A stretch of DNA of 41,090 nucleotides from a virus (IMGVR_UViG_2563366960_000010); one strand, 5' to 3'; numbered from the stretch's first letter, positions 3,369 through 35,759 are shown. Notes: generated from the sequence alone by a model not told the origin. Translations and numbers: made by a program.

Positions 3369-3395
3369 CCCGCAAAATATTGCGGGCTTTTTTTT
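3369..3395 (+). terminator. Plus-strand intrinsic terminator abutting the tailspike stop codon
   Basis: Stem CCCGCA / TGCGGG with 6-nt loop followed by T8 on the plus strand; on the minus strand the hairpin is not followed by a U-run. Confidence 0.5.
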
Positions 3396-6300
3396 AACGT
3401 TCTTCCAGAGACTGAATCCGCTCTTTTATCTTATCCATTTCTCTGCGCTGCCATGCTGCCTCGATATAGAATAAGAGATCAGGTCTGACCCCCCATCTAG
3501 ATCCTGCTGGCGTTATTTCAACGCGCTCAATGATGTCTTCCATTACCATCACTGGATTATCATCCTCATCAACAATGATGCTCCCGTCATTATCAGTCAG
3601 CGGCATTTCCCTTTGGCCAGTAATGACGTCATCATATACTGCGGGATAATCGTCATAGCAAAGAAAGGCATAGCGGCATGTTGTGCTTTCTTCTTCCATG
3701 AGTCCGTGAGAAATAAGAACATCACGAAGTTGCTGCGCGATTACACCATGATGTATCCTCGCCCCTTCTTCCCCCTTTATAGCGACAGCGTTCAGCCATT
3801 TATAAGCGATATACCTGACGTCACCCCAGGCATCCAGCAATGCTTCGTCAGGAGAGACCGGCTCTGTCTTTAATGTTCCGTCACTGGTAACCACAGGATT
3901 GGAGCCAAGATAAACTGTCGAGAACCTGTTTCCCGGACCACCAAGAGCATTTACATTATCAAGATAAGGTTTAACATCTCCGTTCTCAAAAAGATGTTCG
4001 AGTGCGTTATATACCGCGCGACGTGGAGTACTGCTTCCGGAACCATGCAACGTTATCATTGCACCATCTGCTGAAGACGTTGTTTCACCGCCGCTAACGA
4101 TTAATCTCTGAGCGGTAACATCATCAGACGGTACTTTCTTCGCAATAATGGCGTAATTACCCTCAAGTTTGACTTCCGCGCGAACTTGTCCTGATGTACC
4201 TGCATGGACAGTCAGTGACTGGACGGCAACATCATCTGTGAAATCAACGGGTACAGGAACCGTCCTCACGCCTGACGTCGACATAAAAGTAGGAAGCGTT
4301 CTGTTAGGAGTGGCTCCGTAGACAAAATCCCTTGAAACAAATTCTTCCTGTTTAATTTTCACCCTGAAACAATACAAATCAGCCGGGTGACCATCGTGAA
4401 CATAAGGATATTTTCTGTTGTTATCCCCTATGCTCCATGGGTTTAGAAAGTCTTCCCCACCGAAAATGTAGTACAGCCAGTTGTCTTTGATACAAACTGA
4501 ACCAACACCAACTGCAGAGTTAACTATTCCGCCCTGATAAATCTGATCAGTAACATTAACCCACTCTACATTATCCAGACTCCACTCATTGACGTTAACT
4601 CTGGTCATAAATGTTCTTGGATAATTTCCTGCATAACGGTTATCAGGTTCTCCTCCTTCCCACTCACCAAATGCGCGCTCACTGCCAAAAATAATCAGCT
4701 CATCGCCAACTTTGGCAAAAGGAAGGTTTGAGTGATGAACATTATTTGGGAAGCGAAGAGAATTCCATGATGTACCTAAATCAGAGCTTCTGTGCAATGA
4801 ACTACCGGGTTGAGTACTTAATGTCCCCCTGGTCGTCAGATACAGAATGCCATCATAATATTTTACACATGGCTCAGATGCATTCGCCTCATATTCTGCA
4901 GGTATGCGTCTGCGAACAAAGCTACCAGGAGAACCGAAAGCATCAGAGAAATAGAGTATCCCAAGCTCGCGTGGACCAATATCACCATTATGGTAGCCAA
5001 CAGCAAAACTGTTATCGCTAATCGTCGCAAAACTGTGAATCTCAGTAACAGGAGTGCTTCCGTCAACAAAAGAAGGAATAGTTCCAAGACTGGTTTTTCT
5101 CCATGGTGACGAGTGAAATGATGTACCAAAACTCCAGTATCTACCCTCGTTATTCTGATCCACATCCTGGGTATTTTGCGTCGTAACTGTAAAAGTATTT
5201 TTATCAATAACAGTAGTCACCGTCATATTCCCGGTAACACCTGTAACACCAGAGTTTGAGAAGTTGACAAAATCACCAGCAAATAATCCGTGATCAGTAA
5301 TGCGAATATAAGCGACTTGCTGATTTGCTGCTTTCGTTATACCACCATAAGCGCGAAGGCTGCGACTCATTGGGCGATCCCACAACTCTGCAACCTGCAG
5401 TTTATTTCCGCTCACGGTCCGCGTCTCAATTACAGCAAAAAGGCGATTTCTGACAACCCCCATACTCATGCAGTGATAGTTAACTGTGGGATAGTTTTCA
5501 TGTAAATCTGTAAGCCATTCCGGCGTTGTCCAGGTCTTCCCGTCATCTCCTGAGCGAACCCATGCAACATGGAGGTTATTTACACCATGGCGGTCTCCAG
5601 CCATAAAAGGCGCATAGATGACATTGTCATATACAAACGTTTTATCCTGCGTCCAGGCGTTGTACCACGGTGTATCTGTAATTTTAAATAACTCTCCCTG
5701 GATAAAATCTTCAGAAGCATAAAAAAGAGGCTGGCCCGGTATTCTCTCAAATAAAAAACGAGCATTTTTAAATCGACTGACATCCGGAAGAGTTGATACT
5801 TTAAAAGTAAGCCCTAATCCGTCAATTTTATAACCTGGAGATGAGGCTTCAAGGCACGCGCTTATTGCAGTGGAATCGTCATTTATACCATCACCAACAG
5901 CTCCAAAATCTTTGGGGCTAATAGCATCACGCATTTTATCCTGGAACGTTCGGTACACAGCCCCAGAACCATACTGAATAAACCAACCAAAACCACCAAC
6001 AACCCCGGCGATTGCAGCATCGACATAATTACGCATTGAGCGATTATTTACAGCGTCCTGCTCAAATGATGGATCTGCAAGGTTAGAAATTTTGTTTTGC
6101 TTTGCATCGTAATATTTTGCAAGCAAAGATGGTTTCATCAATGCACGTCTGAACCACCCAAAACATTGCTGGATCAGCATCGTCAGGTAGTCAAAGGCAT
6201 CTTCATGCACTTCGGGGAAAAATTTTCCCTGATTGCGAAGGTCTGTCTCCTGCACTACATCAAGCACACGATCTATCGTAATTCGCCATCCAGTAGCAAG

Positions 6301-6513
6301 CGGAGACGGAAGAACCACAGAACCGCCACTATAAGTGCCCGCCCCAGTTACCGTATAACCGGTATCCAGAACCAATTCTGTTACGTTTCCGTTCAGGTCA
6401 GACACCTGAACAACCAGGTCTGATTTTCTGAAAATTCGAAAAGTATACGGAAACGATGTCGTAACGCCGTTACCGGTGTATTCGTTGTGGTCAACTTCGG
6501 TTGAGACCGTCAT
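3394..6513 (-). CDS. Tailspike: endosialidase with T7 gp17-like N-terminal adaptor and C-terminal intramolecular chaperone domain
   Basis: 1039 aa. N-terminus resembles T7 tail-fibre adaptor; sialidase-type FERIP motif; two Asp-boxes (SGDDGKTW, SSDLGTSW); C-terminus resembles the self-cleaving chaperone domain of K1F-type endosialidases. Confidence 0.8.
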   Translation of the reverse strand: MTVSTEVDHNEYTGNGVTTSFPYTFRIFRKSDLVVQVSDLNGNVTELVLDTGYTVTGAGTYSGGSVVLPSPLATGWRITIDRVLDVVQETDLRNQGKFFPEVHEDAFDYLTMLIQQCFGWFRRALMKPSLLAKYYDAKQNKISNLADPSFEQDAVNNRSMRNYVDAAIAGVVGGFGWFIQYGSGAVYRTFQDKMRDAISPKDFGAVGDGINDDSTAISACLEASSPGYKIDGLGLTFKVSTLPDVSRFKNARFLFERIPGQPLFYASEDFIQGELFKITDTPWYNAWTQDKTFVYDNVIYAPFMAGDRHGVNNLHVAWVRSGDDGKTWTTPEWLTDLHENYPTVNYHCMSMGVVRNRLFAVIETRTVSGNKLQVAELWDRPMSRSLRAYGGITKAANQQVAYIRITDHGLFAGDFVNFSNSGVTGVTGNMTVTTVIDKNTFTVTTQNTQDVDQNNEGRYWSFGTSFHSSPWRKTSLGTIPSFVDGSTPVTEIHSFATISDNSFAVGYHNGDIGPRELGILYFSDAFGSPGSFVRRRIPAEYEANASEPCVKYYDGILYLTTRGTLSTQPGSSLHRSSDLGTSWNSLRFPNNVHHSNLPFAKVGDELIIFGSERAFGEWEGGEPDNRYAGNYPRTFMTRVNVNEWSLDNVEWVNVTDQIYQGGIVNSAVGVGSVCIKDNWLYYIFGGEDFLNPWSIGDNNRKYPYVHDGHPADLYCFRVKIKQEEFVSRDFVYGATPNRTLPTFMSTSGVRTVPVPVDFTDDVAVQSLTVHAGTSGQVRAEVKLEGNYAIIAKKVPSDDVTAQRLIVSGGETTSSADGAMITLHGSGSSTPRRAVYNALEHLFENGDVKPYLDNVNALGGPGNRFSTVYLGSNPVVTSDGTLKTEPVSPDEALLDAWGDVRYIAYKWLNAVAIKGEEGARIHHGVIAQQLRDVLISHGLMEEESTTCRYAFLCYDDYPAVYDDVITGQREMPLTDNDGSIIVDEDDNPVMVMEDIIERVEITPAGSRWGVRPDLLFYIEAAWQRREMDKIKERIQSLEER

Positions 6514-6689: not shown

Positions 6690-6708
6690 ATTGCATGGAG
6701 AAGATAAG

Positions 6709-6966
6709 ATGCAGCAGTATCACTATCCACTGGAAGACGGATTTACCGAAAGGATTCACACGCCGGGAGGCGTCAGGTCACTGGTGGAGGGATCGCACTT
6801 GATGAAATTACTCCGGGATCTCGATAAGGATGGATTTAATGTCGATGGCCCACTTGCCGAACTGACTGCACTGATTAACTACGTCACCAGCTCACAGATG
6901 TCTATGCAGGATCTGCAAACACATCTCGACTATTGTGCCGAACAATTACGAAAACAAACCCGGTAA
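6709..6966 (+). CDS. Small protein homologous to the C-terminal domain of the antirepressor at 8115-8825; candidate SOS-controlled antirepressor or modulator
   Basis: 85 aa from ATG 6709 with SD GGAG. By eye about 40% identical to the last ~80 aa of the Ant ORF (shared IH.P.GV, LM.LL, DG..V.G..AEL, QTH). Confidence 0.6.
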   Translation: MQQYHYPLEDGFTERIHTPGGVRSLVEGSHLMKLLRDLDKDGFNVDGPLAELTALINYVTSSQMSMQDLQTHLDYCAEQLRKQTR

Positions 6967-6988: not shown

Positions 6989-7717
6989 CTATCGTTTCGC
7001 TTTGTGCTCGTCCCAGCACGTTTTGCACCATGCCATTAAGCCGTCCGCATTTTGATTATTAGGGTAAAAGCTGGTCCGTTTTCTGCGGACATTACAAATT
7101 GGGCACCACTTCATATGGCGTGTATTCTTTGGGCCATCGAGACACCTTGCACACCACTTAGTCAATCCATCTGGATTTTTTGACGATTTCCGGAATTTGT
7201 CATATGGAAGGTTTATTCTGCATCGCAAACACTGCTTGCGGCCACTTGAAACTCTGTTAGCTGATTCTTCTTTTGGCGGCGATACAGAAGGTATTCTTGC
7301 TGGCTCTGATACTGCCTGAGGTGCTTTTTTAGATGACTGAGACGATATGTCATCACCAGGGAATCTTCCATGATATGCCGGACGCATTGATACTCCAGGT
7401 GGAAGCTCAGCTGTAAACGGCTTTGGCTGAATCAGTTGCCTCTCTTTTGCTAACTCCTGCTGTTTACAATATGTCTGGATTACCGCACTATCATAAGCAG
7501 GAGGTGCGGAAATATTAGGCGCATTACCTCCAGTTTTTTGAAACTGAGTAGAGGTGTGTTCTATCACCTGTGTACGATTAATCGTTATCTCCCCATCTTC
7601 GGTCTTTATCGTTTTGTTATGATTAACGACCGTACGATCAGAGATCTTAGTCTTGTTCTGGTTGATAACGTAAATAATCACCGCAACCACACCAACAACT
7701 ATCCAGAAAACTTCCAT
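6989..7717 (-). CDS. Membrane-anchored protein with tandem CxxC zinc-ribbon repeats; candidate superinfection-exclusion factor
   Basis: 242 aa; N-terminal TM helix, Pro/Ser-rich linker, C-terminal twofold repeat C-x2-C ... DGL..WC-x2-C; SD GAGGA upstream; operator palindrome just upstream. Confidence 0.55.
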   Translation of the reverse strand: MEVFWIVVGVVAVIIYVINQNKTKISDRTVVNHNKTIKTEDGEITINRTQVIEHTSTQFQKTGGNAPNISAPPAYDSAVIQTYCKQQELAKERQLIQPKPFTAELPPGVSMRPAYHGRFPGDDISSQSSKKAPQAVSEPARIPSVSPPKEESANRVSSGRKQCLRCRINLPYDKFRKSSKNPDGLTKWCARCLDGPKNTRHMKWCPICNVRRKRTSFYPNNQNADGLMAWCKTCWDEHKAKR

Positions 7718-7845: not shown

Positions 7846-7935
7846 ATTTACATCGCACTCCTCTTGTGCCATAGTAATCGGGCACTGGCAAAATCCAGTG
7901 CCGGGATTGGCGTCCCGGGTTACTAAGTGGCGCAT

Positions 7936-7959
7936 ACCACGCCAGACGTGGTTTTTTTA
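7936..7959 (+). terminator. Intrinsic terminator inside the leader upstream of the antirepressor gene
   Basis: Stem ACCACG / CGTGGT with 5-nt loop followed by T7; preceded by a strong hairpin GGCACTGG / CCAGTGCC at 7881-7902. Confidence 0.6.
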
Positions 7960-8114
7960 TGCGTTAAGCACAGCTATATCCGAATTATGGTGGGCTGGGC
8001 AGGGGTCCGAAAGGACGCCGGTACCACTTAGGCCGGTACGCCAACCTTGTCCAGTTCACCACCAGTAATTGGCGTTGCGGTGGTGATTAAAATCACTAAG
8101 TGGAGATAACCACC

Positions 8115-8825
8115 ATGGCTAATGCTCAAACTTCCATCTTCAAATTTGAATCTGTTAACCCTATCCGTTCCATCATTATCGATGGCCAACCATGGTTTGT
8201 AGCCCAAGACGTTTGTAGTGCGCTGCGTATCCAAAACGTCACCCAAGCACTTGAAAAACTGGATGATGATGAAAGGTCTATGTTCAACATAGGGCATGAA
8301 CATCGTGCAATTTTTGACAGCCGAGTAAAAGAGATCAACATCATCTCCGAGTCAGGCCTCTACACACTGATCCTCCGCTGCCGCGACGCAGTGACACCAG
8401 GCACTATCCCCTACCGCTTTCGTAAATGGGTTACGGGTGAGGTTCTTCCTCAGATCCGCCGCACCGGAAGCTACATTAAAAACTCGCTCCCGCAGGAAGA
8501 ACGCATAAAGATGGTTGCCGACCAGGTGGCCAACGCCACGGCGTCAGCAGTAATGCAGGCGATGAAGATAGAGAACAAAACCTACAGCGCCCCACTGAAT
8601 CCCGGCTACCGCAGCCTGATTCATTCGCCGTCTGGTGTTCTCGGCCTGACGGAGAACTCACTGCTGATGAATCTGCTGAACCAGTTACAGGACGACGGGC
8701 ACGACGTATCGGGCGCGGCGGCGGAGCTGACCACCATGTTCTGCTACATCGTCGGTGTGAGCAAATGCCTGCGTGATATCCAGACCCACGCGGAATACAT
8801 CAACGACAAGGCAGGGTTCTTCTGA
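8115..8825 (+). CDS. ant: Antirepressor, Bro-N/KilA-N family N-terminal domain
   Basis: 236 aa from ATG 8115 with SD GGAG; N-terminal Bro-N pattern (IFKFE...IRSIIIDGQPWFVAQDV); C-terminal domain paralogous to the 85-aa ORF. Confidence 0.75.
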   Translation: MANAQTSIFKFESVNPIRSIIIDGQPWFVAQDVCSALRIQNVTQALEKLDDDERSMFNIGHEHRAIFDSRVKEINIISESGLYTLILRCRDAVTPGTIPYRFRKWVTGEVLPQIRRTGSYIKNSLPQEERIKMVADQVANATASAVMQAMKIENKTYSAPLNPGYRSLIHSPSGVLGLTENSLLMNLLNQLQDDGHDVSGAAAELTTMFCYIVGVSKCLRDIQTHAEYINDKAGFF

Positions 8826-8833
8826 CGGGCGGT

Positions 8834-8860
8834 GGCACAGGGATGTGCCTTTAAATAATT
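8834..8860 (+). terminator. Weak terminator-like hairpin after ant
   Basis: Stem GGCACA / TGTGCC then TTTAAATAATT; short T-run, so weak. Confidence 0.3.
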
Positions 8861-8897
8861 CTGTACAGATTGCAGACTGTGGGTGAATAGCGTACTA

Positions 8898-8912
8898 TTA
8901 CCTTAAAGGTAA
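8898..8912. promoter_or_regulatory. Operator-like palindrome TTACCTTAAAGGTAA abutting the SD of the 55-aa gene
   Basis: Perfect copy immediately followed by AGGAGG and ATG 8925. Confidence 0.55.
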
Positions 8913-8924
8913 AGGAGGCGCGAT

Positions 8925-9092
8925 ATGACAGCGTTGAAAAATCGTACTCAGCACAATGAACAAGCCAAGCAATGCTGGGATGTCATTGGAAAAGTTATGC
9001 TTGGCCGCGCAAGCAAAGAGCGCGACAAGGATATGGTTTACCAGACAGGAACATCTTTCAGCGACTTCAAGGCGGCATTTCGCTCCAAATAG
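8925..9092 (+). CDS. Small basic protein (55 aa), first gene of an accessory two-gene cassette
   Basis: ATG with perfect SD AGGAGG at 6-nt spacing; below the 60-aa cutoff of the ORF track; no family recognised. Confidence 0.5.
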   Translation: MTALKNRTQHNEQAKQCWDVIGKVMLGRASKERDKDMVYQTGTSFSDFKAAFRSK

Positions 9093-9112
9093 AAGCACAT
9101 CAGGAGTTTTCC

Positions 9113-9553
9113 TTGAAGTTTAACATTAGAATATCTAATAGTTTTCTACATGGGGAAAGCAACACCCCTTTCGCTGTAGACGGACCTTTCCTTACTGATG
9201 ATGAAATAAAAATCATACAAAGTTTTTTAGAGGATGTTGCCAATGGAAGGGCGCTTGTTGGAAAAAACAAGCCCTCGTGGGTTGATGATAACCATGATAA
9301 AATTCCCGGCTCAGACAATTATGAGCAAGAGAATTATTGGCATTATCATTGTGGGCCAACATGGTATCCAAACACATTTAAGAATTATACCATTAACTTA
9401 AATTTCAACCCTGGCGGAAGGCATTCTAATGAATGCATTCATTATGCAAAAAATGATAATGAAATTGTCATTGTTGGATTTTCAAGAGAACACATACCTT
9501 TCCTTTCATCAGATGGAAACAACAATCCGCTTTTTAATGATGAAGAAGAATAG
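9113..9553 (+). CDS. Hypothetical 146-aa protein in AT-rich cargo region
   Basis: TTG start with SD CAGGAG 6 nt upstream; region markedly AT-rich versus neighbours; Asn/Asp-rich, acidic tail; terminator follows directly. Confidence 0.5.
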   Translation: MKFNIRISNSFLHGESNTPFAVDGPFLTDDEIKIIQSFLEDVANGRALVGKNKPSWVDDNHDKIPGSDNYEQENYWHYHCGPTWYPNTFKNYTINLNFNPGGRHSNECIHYAKNDNEIVIVGFSREHIPFLSSDGNNNPLFNDEEE

Positions 9554-9576
9554 CCCGCGCTGCGGGCTTTTTTGTG
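9554..9576 (+). terminator. Intrinsic terminator after the AT-rich cassette
   Basis: Stem GCCCGC / GCGGGC followed by TTTTTTG immediately after the stop at 9553. Confidence 0.7.
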
Positions 9577-9645
9577 GACGAAACAAAAGTCAGTGCTACA
9601 CTCATTGACGCCACATTGAGGTGGCTTATAGATGGAAATTTCACA

Positions 9646-9807
9646 ATGAAAAAAGCATTTGCTGCACTGTTCGTTTTGTTGTCTCTGGTAGCTTCAACTC
9701 AGGCCTTTGCCGGTCGTTGTCAGCACGACAGCGACACTGCTGCTGACGGCTCCCGCTGCGGTGGGCGTTCTGCGGACTCCCGTCCGGGCGGCGGTGGCAT
9801 TCGTTAA
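9646..9807 (+). CDS. Small secreted Gly/Arg/Asp-rich peptide with two cysteines
   Basis: Signal peptide MKKAFAALFVLLSLVASTQAFA then ~31-aa mature peptide; weak SD; longer track ORF would start at GTG 9574. Confidence 0.45.
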   Translation: MKKAFAALFVLLSLVASTQAFAGRCQHDSDTAADGSRCGGRSADSRPGGGGIR

Positions 9808-26412: not shown

Positions 26413-26489
26413 GTGGCATTAGCTCAGTTGGACAGAGCAACCGCCTTCTAAGCGGTTGGTCGCAGGTTCGAATCCTGCATGCCACGCCA
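26413..26489 (+). tRNA. tRNA-Arg (anticodon UCU), phage-encoded, argU-like
   Basis: 77-nt cloverleaf folded by hand: acceptor GTGGCAT/ATGCCAC, T-arm GCAGG-TTCGAAT-CCTGC, anticodon loop CTTCTAA, discriminator G, encoded CCA; core resembles E. coli argU but stems differ. Confidence 0.85.
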
Positions 26490-34789: not shown

Positions 34790-35020
34790 TCATGAGTAGA
34801 AGAAGTATGCCAGTTCTGCTTTTGAGCGCAGCCATTGTCTTGTTTTACAGGCTTTAAAAAGCCCATTCATCAATACTTTACCTGGCATTTTGCGCTTGCC
34901 TGTTAAGTGAGTCTGGATATAGTGACTCGTCGTTCCGGCTTCCTGTGCGAAGGCTTCACGCTCATCCGGAGTAAGTGCAAGCCAGTGCTTTTTGAAATCG
35001 AAATGTCCGTTATCGCTCAT
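34790..35020 (-). CDS. Cro-like HTH DNA-binding protein
   Basis: 76 aa, HTH-like segment, divergent from repressor gene across an operator-containing region; first gene of the replication operon. Confidence 0.55.
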   Translation of the reverse strand: MSDNGHFDFKKHWLALTPDEREAFAQEAGTTSHYIQTHLTGKRKMPGKVLMNGLFKACKTRQWLRSKAELAYFFYS

Positions 35021-35174: not shown

Positions 35175-35759
35175 ATGAAAAGTATCCAGGACGTCCGCAG
35201 GCAAAATCTCAACGACTTGATCGACCGTGAATTCAATGGTGTTCAGACGCGGATGGCAGAAAAACTTGGAACTCAGGCAAATCTGGTAAACCGCTGGGCT
35301 CTTGGCAAGAAGGTTATCGGCGACCAGGTTGCACGAAAAATTGAAGCTGCCGCCAATAAACCCCGTAACTGGCTTGATATTGATCGTTCGCTTTCTCAGG
35401 AGGGTTTTCAGCCTGTCGGCCCGAGCGATATAGGTCAGCTGGCGGCTCACAACCTGGAACGCTGGATGAGCGAAAGCCGCGACCTTTCAACACAGGGAAA
35501 ACTTCACCGCGCATCCGGCGTCGCCCAGGTGACAATCAGCCGCCTGTTAAACAATGAGGTCAGCGTTTCCATTTCCACCCTGGAGAATGTTGCATCCGCA
35601 TTCGGGCGTCACGGATATGAACTACTGATTCACCCGCACGACCCTGCGACTATCAACTATGACCGCTCACGCTACGCATTGTTACCCGAAACCGAGAAAG
35701 CAAAGATCGAAAGTTACATTGAATTTGTCATCAACCAGAACGAAAAAAGCAAACAATAA
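35175..35759 (+). CDS. Prophage repressor candidate with tandem XRE-type HTH domains and no S24 peptidase domain
   Basis: 194 aa; two HTH-like segments; no Ser-Lys autocleavage domain recognisable; divergent from the cro-like gene. Confidence 0.6.
   Translation: MKSIQDVRRQNLNDLIDREFNGVQTRMAEKLGTQANLVNRWALGKKVIGDQVARKIEAAANKPRNWLDIDRSLSQEGFQPVGPSDIGQLAAHNLERWMSESRDLSTQGKLHRASGVAQVTISRLLNNEVSVSISTLENVASAFGRHGYELLIHPHDPATINYDRSRYALLPETEKAKIESYIEFVINQNEKSKQ

Follow-up and report, generated by a model that had tools for sequence, protein, structure and literature searches.

Ribosome-dependent mRNA interferases such as RelE, YafQ, YoeB and HigB are the toxins of type II toxin-antitoxin (TA) modules, in which a small upstream antitoxin gene is followed by a larger gene for a basic toxin of ~85-95 amino acids (aa); in YafQ and YoeB, a histidine sits just past the last strand. 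Related arrangements are carried by prophages: in the paaR2-paaA2-parE2 system of an Escherichia coli O157:H7 prophage the toxin ParE2 is of the ParE type, without the histidines of the ribonuclease (RNase) type, the filamentous prophage Pf4 encodes PfiT/PfiA, and toxins of the YafO family (PF13957) are present in phage TL-2011b and in many E. coli prophages. Phage morons and cargo hotspots, finally, are inserts that lie between conserved phage genes with a promoter region on one side and a terminator on the other, vary among close relatives and differ in GC content. Here we analyse a two-gene cassette at positions 8898-9576 of the viral DNA stretch IMGVR_UViG_2563366960_000010 (41,090 nucleotides (nt), hereafter the window), which encodes a 55-aa and a 146-aa protein. 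The window corresponds to the E. coli chromosome segment yfgI-guaA and holds a podovirus prophage of the phiV10/epsilon15 type (genus Uetakevirus), integrated at guaA. We give slightly better than an even chance to the reading that the pair represents a new family of TA-like modules with a RelE/ParE fold, present here as exchangeable cargo in a slot that is probably under control of the phage repressor.

The two genes lie 20 nt apart on the same strand, each with its own Shine-Dalgarno sequence, which is the close bicistronic coupling seen in type II TA modules. Whereas the upstream gene in the window has AGGAGG and an ATG start, weak starts (TTG, TTG and GTG) are used for the downstream gene in three of six loci. 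Both coding sequences, the TTG start included, are annotated in RefSeq by the Prokaryotic Genome Annotation Pipeline (PGAP) in a 99.9%-identical E. coli prophage, where the 146-aa product is WP_000671198.1, and homologues of this protein begin at the equivalent residue via TTG, GTG or ATG. The larger protein matches PHROG 5954 (E 7e-74) and the smaller one PHROG 8607 (E 4e-39); these PHROGs, both without assigned function, were the only matches of the two proteins in searches of Pfam, PHROGs, PADLOC and NCBIfam. The 146-aa family comprises 34 clusters at 90% identity, mostly from Enterobacterales and Pasteurellaceae, and 118 representatives at 50% identity in an exhaustive hidden Markov model search, and the close family of the 55-aa protein is narrow (12 clusters). 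The cassette open reading frames (ORFs) are beyond chance and both proteins belong to conserved families. A reading of this DNA made earlier without database searches (the sequence-only reading) had described a palindrome, AGGAGG, a basic 55-aa ORF, a second Shine-Dalgarno sequence, a TTG-initiated 146-aa ORF and a terminator, and each of these was found again in the same place (Table 1).

Three histidines of the 146-aa protein, H77, H79 and H127, are candidates for catalysis and are invariant across 101 aligned diverse members of the family, in which G50, N52, K53, S55, Y78 and Y111 are at least 90% conserved; a closer set shares the motifs GKNKPSW, YWHYHCG, ECIHY and IVGxSxxHxPF. The secondary structure runs from a strand (residues 4-7) through two helices (9-13 and 29-43) to three further strands (75-79, 108-114 and 117-124). 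The predicted model has the N-terminal strand, the two helices and the three-stranded antiparallel sheet of the RelE/ParE superfamily, as well as a likeness to its solved members, and on this modelled structure the protein is predicted to adopt a RelE/ParE-superfamily fold. Its elements follow the order of the RelE topology, with two conserved insertions: the first (~44-74), after helix 2, carries GKNKPSW, and the second (~80-107) lies between strands 2 and 3. H77 and H79 are placed on the WHYH strand and H127 (IVGFSREH) just past the last strand, as far beyond it, we take it, as H87 of YafQ and H83 of YoeB, and because of this placement the protein would be a member of the RNase type. Two alignments by hhalign, both below significance, are collinear with the RelE topology, namely that of the GKNKPSW loop after helix 2 with GKGKPEP of YoeB and that of RHSNECIHYAKND-NEIVIVGFS with the RelE strand 3-4 hairpin. 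Unlike in PaaA2-ParE2, it is the RNase-type toxins that score higher here and a histidine triad is invariant.

The 55-aa protein has an isoelectric point (pI) of 9.8 and a net charge of +5. Its AlphaFold2 model, built from a shallow alignment, consists of a long helix (2-41) and a short one (45-53) and is of modest confidence, with a predicted local distance difference test score of 71.5 and a predicted template modelling score of 0.34. Antitoxins that fold on their toxin and have no DNA-binding domain, for example PaaA2, look like an extended helix. Neither a ribbon-helix-helix nor a helix-turn-helix fold is seen in the model, nor does Pfam give a match, and the protein differs from the antitoxins of the RelE, YafQ, YoeB and HigB modules in having no ribbon-helix-helix, Phd/YefM or helix-turn-helix fold. 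The DNA binding and autoregulation that mark type II antitoxins are therefore not apparent in it, and the palindrome upstream of the cassette is a phage-wide one, common to unrelated cargos. As no DNA-binding fold is predicted for the partner, it is probably the phage, and not autoregulation, that governs expression.

A same-strand partner gene lies upstream of the larger gene in every case examined. It encodes 56 aa in a Pectobacterium prophage, 58 aa in Erwinia, 62 aa in Proteus, 102 aa in Klebsiella, 71 aa in Aeromonas, 50 aa in a Vibrio inovirus and 159-211 aa in Pasteurellaceae (13 cases) and Neisseriaceae, and the spacing between the two genes ranges from an overlap to a gap of ~31 nt. 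All partners have in common a C-terminal motif of ~40 aa, (E)-x-(K/A)-x-x-(W/A)-D-x-V-L-L-x-R ... Y/F ... S-x-x-D-F/L-x-x-A, and vary in the region N-terminal to it. The pair was found in podovirus, lambdoid, P2/Mu-like and filamentous prophages and at one phage-free chromosomal site, in hosts from the Enterobacterales, Pasteurellaceae, Aeromonas, Vibrio and Neisseriaceae, which is the patchy and mobile distribution of type II TA modules. In a podovirus-like prophage of Pectobacterium it occupies the equivalent position next to the antirepressor (Ant) gene, in lambdoid prophages of Klebsiella it lies in the nin region, and in a Haemophilus myovirus prophage between tape-measure and baseplate genes. 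The filamentous Vibrio phage 10N.261.55.B9_PE002 (9.8 kb) has it at 1453-2055 on the minus strand, where the 50-aa partner abuts a 149-aa homologue that is 42% identical, and in Erwinia it is a stand-alone two-gene insert with accA on one side and housekeeping genes on the other. Compared with PfiT/PfiA, the pair has a different antitoxin and shows no demonstrated sequence relationship.

The Pasteurellaceae copies also bear on a different kind of pair, since their partners have a hydrophobic N-terminus and one copy adjoins a giant MuF/ART polyvalent protein, as could be expected if the toxin were polymorphic or contact-dependent and the partner its immunity protein. In every locus examined, however, the 146-aa protein is a free-standing ORF without delivery, secretion or pre-toxin domain, and immunity genes normally come after the toxin gene, whereas here the partner comes first. 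We consider it very improbable that the cassette is such a pair or that its ORFs are spurious; a secreted toxin with an immunity protein is much less likely than the other rivals discussed below, and with 118 conserved representatives and their invariant motifs, spurious ORFs are ruled out.

One phenotype, reduced serum survival, has been published for this locus, under another gene model (PMC7724020). Over positions 8800-9650 the window shares 99.9% identity with a prophage of E. coli MS20653 and 100% with phage phiv142-3, in which a 52-aa "orf10" (QGF19616.1) was tied to serum resistance of avian pathogenic E. coli (PMC7724020). This "orf10" (window 9243-9401) lies within the 146-aa gene but is read in the +1 frame, which stop codons break in nine of ten homologous loci, while the 146-aa frame is conserved. 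Judged by frame conservation, the published "orf10" is evidently an out-of-frame internal ORF and the 146-aa gene the real gene behind the phenotype. The homology arms of the lambda-Red deletion (PMC7724020) map to 9183-9242 and 9402-9461, from which it follows that the knock-out removed aa 44-97 of the 146-aa protein, GKNKPSW and WHYHCG included; the 55-aa gene was left intact. In the same study, the locus was transcribed in the lysogen, with transcript detectable in lysogens grown in lysogeny broth (LB), and the "orf10" transcript went up ~17-fold (2^4.12) in chicken serum, where most prophage genes rose along with it, tailspike and replication genes included (PMC7724020). The knock-out was viable and unimpaired in growth in LB, its growth and survival in serum were reduced, to about 60%, and kps transcripts of the K1 capsule were ~2-fold lower (PMC7724020). 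That the larger gene can be lost without harm to viability while the small gene stays in place is as predicted for removal of the toxin from a TA pair. The phenotype in serum makes clear that the module is of importance to the lysogen, but not by which mechanism.

A number of observations weigh against a RelE-type TA-like module. The 146-aa protein is acidic (pI 4.9, net charge -11) and its partner basic, the reverse of classic RelE/RelB, so that it fits poorly with binding at the ribosomal A-site. Pfam gave no match for any of the 101 members, and NCBIfam and PADLOC gave none either; PDB sequence searches with two profiles returned no convincing match and no RelE-type chain, and hhalign comparison with RelE, YafQ, YoeB and HigB reached a probability of at most 2.8%, in line with the lack of significant sequence similarity to these toxins. 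From the topology we infer that H77, H79 and H127 would cluster. The partners in Pasteurellaceae and Neisseriaceae carry an N-terminal extension of 100-150 aa with a hydrophobic, signal-peptide-like segment, which is unusual for an antitoxin. Against the YafO-like family alignments, the 146-aa family obtained hhalign probabilities of 0.1% and then 0.9%. Lastly, the knock-out phenotype was reportedly complemented, by a clone that may have expressed either reading frame (PMC7724020).

Several apparent relationships of the 146-aa protein were set aside. Membership of the YafO family had been suspected by eye (WHYH; TS..IHY; IVGF..H), with a BLASTP E of 1.5, and the hhalign comparison at 0.9% pairs WHYH with RHTH and TS..VIHY with TSD.FLVY. 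The 146-aa family did not match PF13957 at E up to 10, whereas the slot protein of TL-2011b scores 26.3 bits, and the partner proteins are unrelated; on account of the 0.9% probability and the lack of a PF13957 match this membership was discarded as unproven, for all the collinearity of the sub-threshold alignment. A sub-threshold PDB match, 9l08 (E 2.8e-4), adds up three repeats of a cytochrome c555 trimer that match weakly and are not significant on their own. An apparent profile match in a genome scan proved to be ribosomal protein L13, in which GKNKPSW is present by chance, and a Foldseek search of viral structures (BFVD) returned no match.

The acidity of the 146-aa protein, unlike the ribosome-binding RelE toxins, together with the serum data, is also what would be expected of a lysogenic-conversion factor that is not a toxin. 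As such, the protein, with or without its partner, would modulate host genes, for instance K1 kps, and improve serum survival without growth arrest, its RelE-like fold serving for selective RNA processing or as a non-catalytic scaffold. We regard this as rather unlikely, though as the strongest of the alternatives. It would account for the serum induction (2^4.12-fold) and for the effect of deleting aa 44-97 on serum growth and survival (PMC7724020), and it accords with the K1-capsule-specific endosialidase tailspike of the window prophage. The effects are modest, however, and could be an indirect outcome of low-level toxin activity, and the wrong gene model of the study, with a +1 frame broken in most loci, clouds what the complementing clone expressed. 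Moreover, the module is also present in non-K1 hosts (Vibrio, Haemophilus, Erwinia, Pectobacterium), so a capsule-specific role cannot be the function of the family. A conversion role is compatible with a TA mechanism, and the two are not mutually exclusive. The tailspike itself, a 1039-aa protein of the K1-capsule depolymerase type, bears on the reported drop of the capsule transcripts. The tail fibre of phiv142-3 is shorter (~710 aa), and because of this difference the window is a mosaic relative of phiv142-3 and not the same phage.

The cassette occupies a slot between ant and the gene for a 53-aa protein with a signal peptide (window 8913-9551), in which at least seven alternative cargos are found in E. 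coli prophages: the 55- and 146-aa pair itself, YafO-family toxin bicistrons of 59+181 aa (as in phage TL-2011b) and of 108+170 aa, a 62+110 aa pair, a 108-aa protein with a 182-aa DUF2335 protein, a 179-aa DUF4760 protein and a 210-aa protein. PADLOC has no entry for any of these seven, and in phiV10 the slot is essentially empty. Part of an 851-bp query was matched in 474 of 5426 complete E. coli genomes, 77 of which have the full cassette and the others the same flanks with different cargo. When the window was aligned with six other loci, similarity ended right past the palindrome (...TATTACCyyAArGGTAAA) and resumed at the terminator (AGCCCGCnnnGCGGGCTTTTTTGTGG); similarity to TL-2011b stops at ~8913. 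Since unrelated cargos have both elements and the breakpoints fall exactly there, palindrome and terminator are a property of the slot and not of the cassette. The sequence-only reading was therefore right in calling the unit a discrete, horizontally acquired accessory cassette, as the seven cargos swap exactly between these two boundaries, but had to be corrected where it granted the cassette an operator and a terminator of its own, both being fixtures of the phage slot. Its guess of a TA module gains real support from the predicted RelE/ParE fold, from the conservation of the partner in every context examined and from the two YafO-family cargos of the slot. These YafO-family cassettes lie in the identical slot, with the same palindrome and terminator, and likewise combine a small basic upstream protein with a larger acidic downstream protein.

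Like a moron, the cassette is an insert between conserved phage genes, flanked by a putative promoter region and a terminator, that varies among close relatives and differs in GC content. Variability and terminator were confirmed, while for the promoter there is a weak consensus match and read-through from ant is possible. Unlike in morons, the slot owns promoter, operator and terminator, and the operator is a dispersed palindrome that also flanks the repressor gene; from PaaA2-ParE2 the cassette differs in having no dedicated regulator gene, control being probably exerted via the phage repressor operator.

A sigma-70 promoter directly upstream of the cassette is weakly supported. The candidate (Table 1) would put the transcription start inside the palindrome, whereas the promoter scan's own call is GTGGCA-16-AATAAT at 8832-8859. 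The hairpin behind ant is followed by TTTAAATAATT and is therefore a weak terminator-like element, for which the terminator scan made no call. With one mismatch allowed, the window has 13 occurrences of the palindrome TTACC-N5-GGTAA (0.55 expected), a number reached in no shuffle, and phiV10 has 14 (0.76 expected), in corresponding locations. Two copies lie between a cro-like gene and a divergent gene for a CI-like repressor, and two more just past the repressor gene, ahead of the next operon, so that four copies flank it; further ones lie upstream of the tailspike gene, the isrK/C4-ant operon, the head operon and a nin-like gene, and two inside the 5' end of terS. In the prophages of Pectobacterium and Klebsiella the module has a 15-mer of this type ahead of it; the non-phage copies in Erwinia and Proteus lack it. 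Judged from its position, the palindrome is most likely a dispersed operator of the CI-like repressor of the prophage, in a layout like that of lambda OR/OL. It was also considered as an operator for MqsA, whose site is AACCT-N3-AGGTT (PMC4894380); the common core ACCT-N3-AGGT is found in six of the 13 copies and the outer position differs, so that this was put down as a resemblance.

A probable operator at the predicted transcription start, of the motif found around the repressor gene and at equivalent sites in phiV10, raises the alternative that the cassette belongs to the lytic programme or to counter-defence. The slot promoter would then be shut by the CI-like repressor in the lysogen and come on at induction or upon fresh infection, for host mRNA decay, for exclusion of co-infecting phages or to supply an antitoxin-like peptide against an abortive-infection toxin of the host. 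The joint induction of the prophage genes in serum, a pattern like partial derepression, agrees with this. Binding of the repressor to the motif is deduced from position, however, the transcript is present in LB-grown lysogens and the deletion had a phenotype in the lysogen; the Erwinia module moreover lies outside a prophage and lacks the palindrome, and conserved pairing with invariant residues of a catalytic type better fits a self-contained TA pair than a decoy. We think a lytic or counter-defence role improbable, and more so than lysogenic conversion.

Base composition was another point of the sequence-only reading, which took the AT-richness of the second gene as a sign of recent acquisition. 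The gene is indeed AT-rich: its GC content is 35.6%, while the 55-aa gene has 47.0% and the prophage 49.0%, and windowed GC has a local minimum of 0.353 at 9200-9499. In every host examined, from Proteus to Erwinia, however, the larger gene has 33-42% GC and lies 4-14 GC points under the average of its locus, the gap being smallest in AT-rich hosts. As it is AT-rich relative to its surroundings in all settings, this is a family trait and not a mark of recent arrival.

Table 1. Positions of the cassette elements and of other features in the window
Feature	Position	Strand	Remarks
Tailspike gene	3394-6513	-	1039-aa endosialidase
91-aa ORF	6691-6966	+	matches PHROGs 450 and 15539
242-aa protein gene	6989-7717	-	PHROG 6762
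isrK Hfq-binding small RNA	7882-7958	+	Rfam match, 67.7 bits
C4 antisense RNA	7983-8066	+	Rfam match, 66 bits
Bro-N/Ant antirepressor gene (ant)	8100/8133-8825	+	C-terminal third (ORF 8100-8825) matches PHROGs 450 and 15539
Hairpin GGCACA-GGGA-TGTGCC	8834-8849	+	just past ant stop codon; kept in all slot variants
Candidate promoter TTGCAG-17 nt-TACTAT	8870-8898	+	weak, 7/12 positions, below scan threshold; kept in slot variants
Palindrome TTACCTTAAAGGTAA	8898-8912		perfect 15 bp, 7-1-7; left boundary of cargo slot
Shine-Dalgarno AGGAGG	8913-8918	+	6 nt before ATG at 8925; first cassette-specific sequence
55-aa ORF, PHROG 8607	8925-9092	+	ATG start; putative antitoxin/neutralising partner
Shine-Dalgarno AGGAG	9102-9106	+	6 nt before TTG at 9113
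146-aa ORF, PHROG 5954	9113-9553	+	TTG start; putative endoribonuclease toxin, predicted RelE/ParE-superfamily fold
Intrinsic terminator AGCCCGCGCTGCGGGCT + TTTTTT	9552-9574	+	stem AGCCCGC-GCT-GCGGGCT at 9552-9568, then TTTTTTG; overlaps stop codon; right slot boundary
53-aa signal-peptide gene	9646-9807		
tRNA gene	26413-26486	+	tRNA-Arg according to PGAP in near-identical prophage
cro-like gene	34790-35020	-	
CI-like repressor gene	35175-35759	+	
Palindrome copies (15 bp each, start positions)	6618, 7738, 7831, 8898, 26076, 29181, 29199, 32756, 32818, 35057, 35105, 35817, 35879		

The cassette and its flanking genes, ant and the 53-aa signal-peptide gene, lie in a neighbourhood with the tailspike on one side and genes for internal virion proteins on the other. 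Directly upstream of ant, Rfam matches identify isrK and a C4 antisense RNA, with two palindrome copies upstream of both; we take this region to be the c4-ant immunity arrangement of the P1/P7 type, here in a podovirus prophage. The 91-aa ORF matches the same two PHROGs as the C-terminal third of Ant, which suggests a duplicated or detached Ant C-terminal domain. In the 242-aa protein, a hydrophobic segment at the N-terminus is combined with two Cys-rich repeats at the C-terminus, which weakly match Stc1, endonuclease VII, HNH and Lar-like zinc-ribbon profiles. The tRNA gene separates the head operon from the terminase region. Past ~29 kb the near-identical E. coli record loses collinearity with the window, and gene positions in the right half were taken from the ORFs of the window itself. 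A "Gp49 family protein" annotated by PGAP at ~26.7 kb was dropped as a possible second RelE-like gene, judged by its name and sequence; it presumably belongs to the unrelated N4 gp49 / Sf6 gene 66 family.

If the cassette is a TA-like module, the 55-aa protein would be made first, from a strong Shine-Dalgarno sequence and ATG, and the 146-aa protein from its weak TTG. The latter would cleave mRNA as an endoribonuclease like RelE, YafQ and YoeB, and the 55-aa protein would bind and neutralise it. Expression of both would be set by the phage, through a promoter region that ends in a copy of the probable operator of the CI-like repressor. The possible pay-off would be fitness of prophage and host under stress, defence against other phages, or addiction. 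A bolder version, which we rate as a long shot and below both the conversion and the lytic role, is that the repressor-wired slot of Uetakevirus prophages swaps TA-like bicistrons and that the acidic RelE-fold protein with its His triad is a stress-released RNA-processing enzyme that remodels host transcripts, those of capsule genes included. In that case, a prophage TA-like module would act as a stress-coupled modulator of virulence, for example in serum.

As a discovery this is solid yet unsurprising in kind, and what it adds is the re-annotation of a published virulence-associated gene, the definition of the slot and the dispersed operator motif that is indicated for the phage repressor. 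The published virulence-associated phenotype can be re-interpreted, as the deletion took out the core of a putative toxin. The cargo slot of guaA-integrated Uetakevirus prophages is now precisely delimited and, several of its inserts being TA-like, can be mined for new TA or defence genes. For the family of PHROG 5954 and PHROG 8607, so far "hypothetical" in RefSeq, the analysis offers a testable identity, that of a predicted RelE-fold toxin with what may be a new kind of short helical partner.

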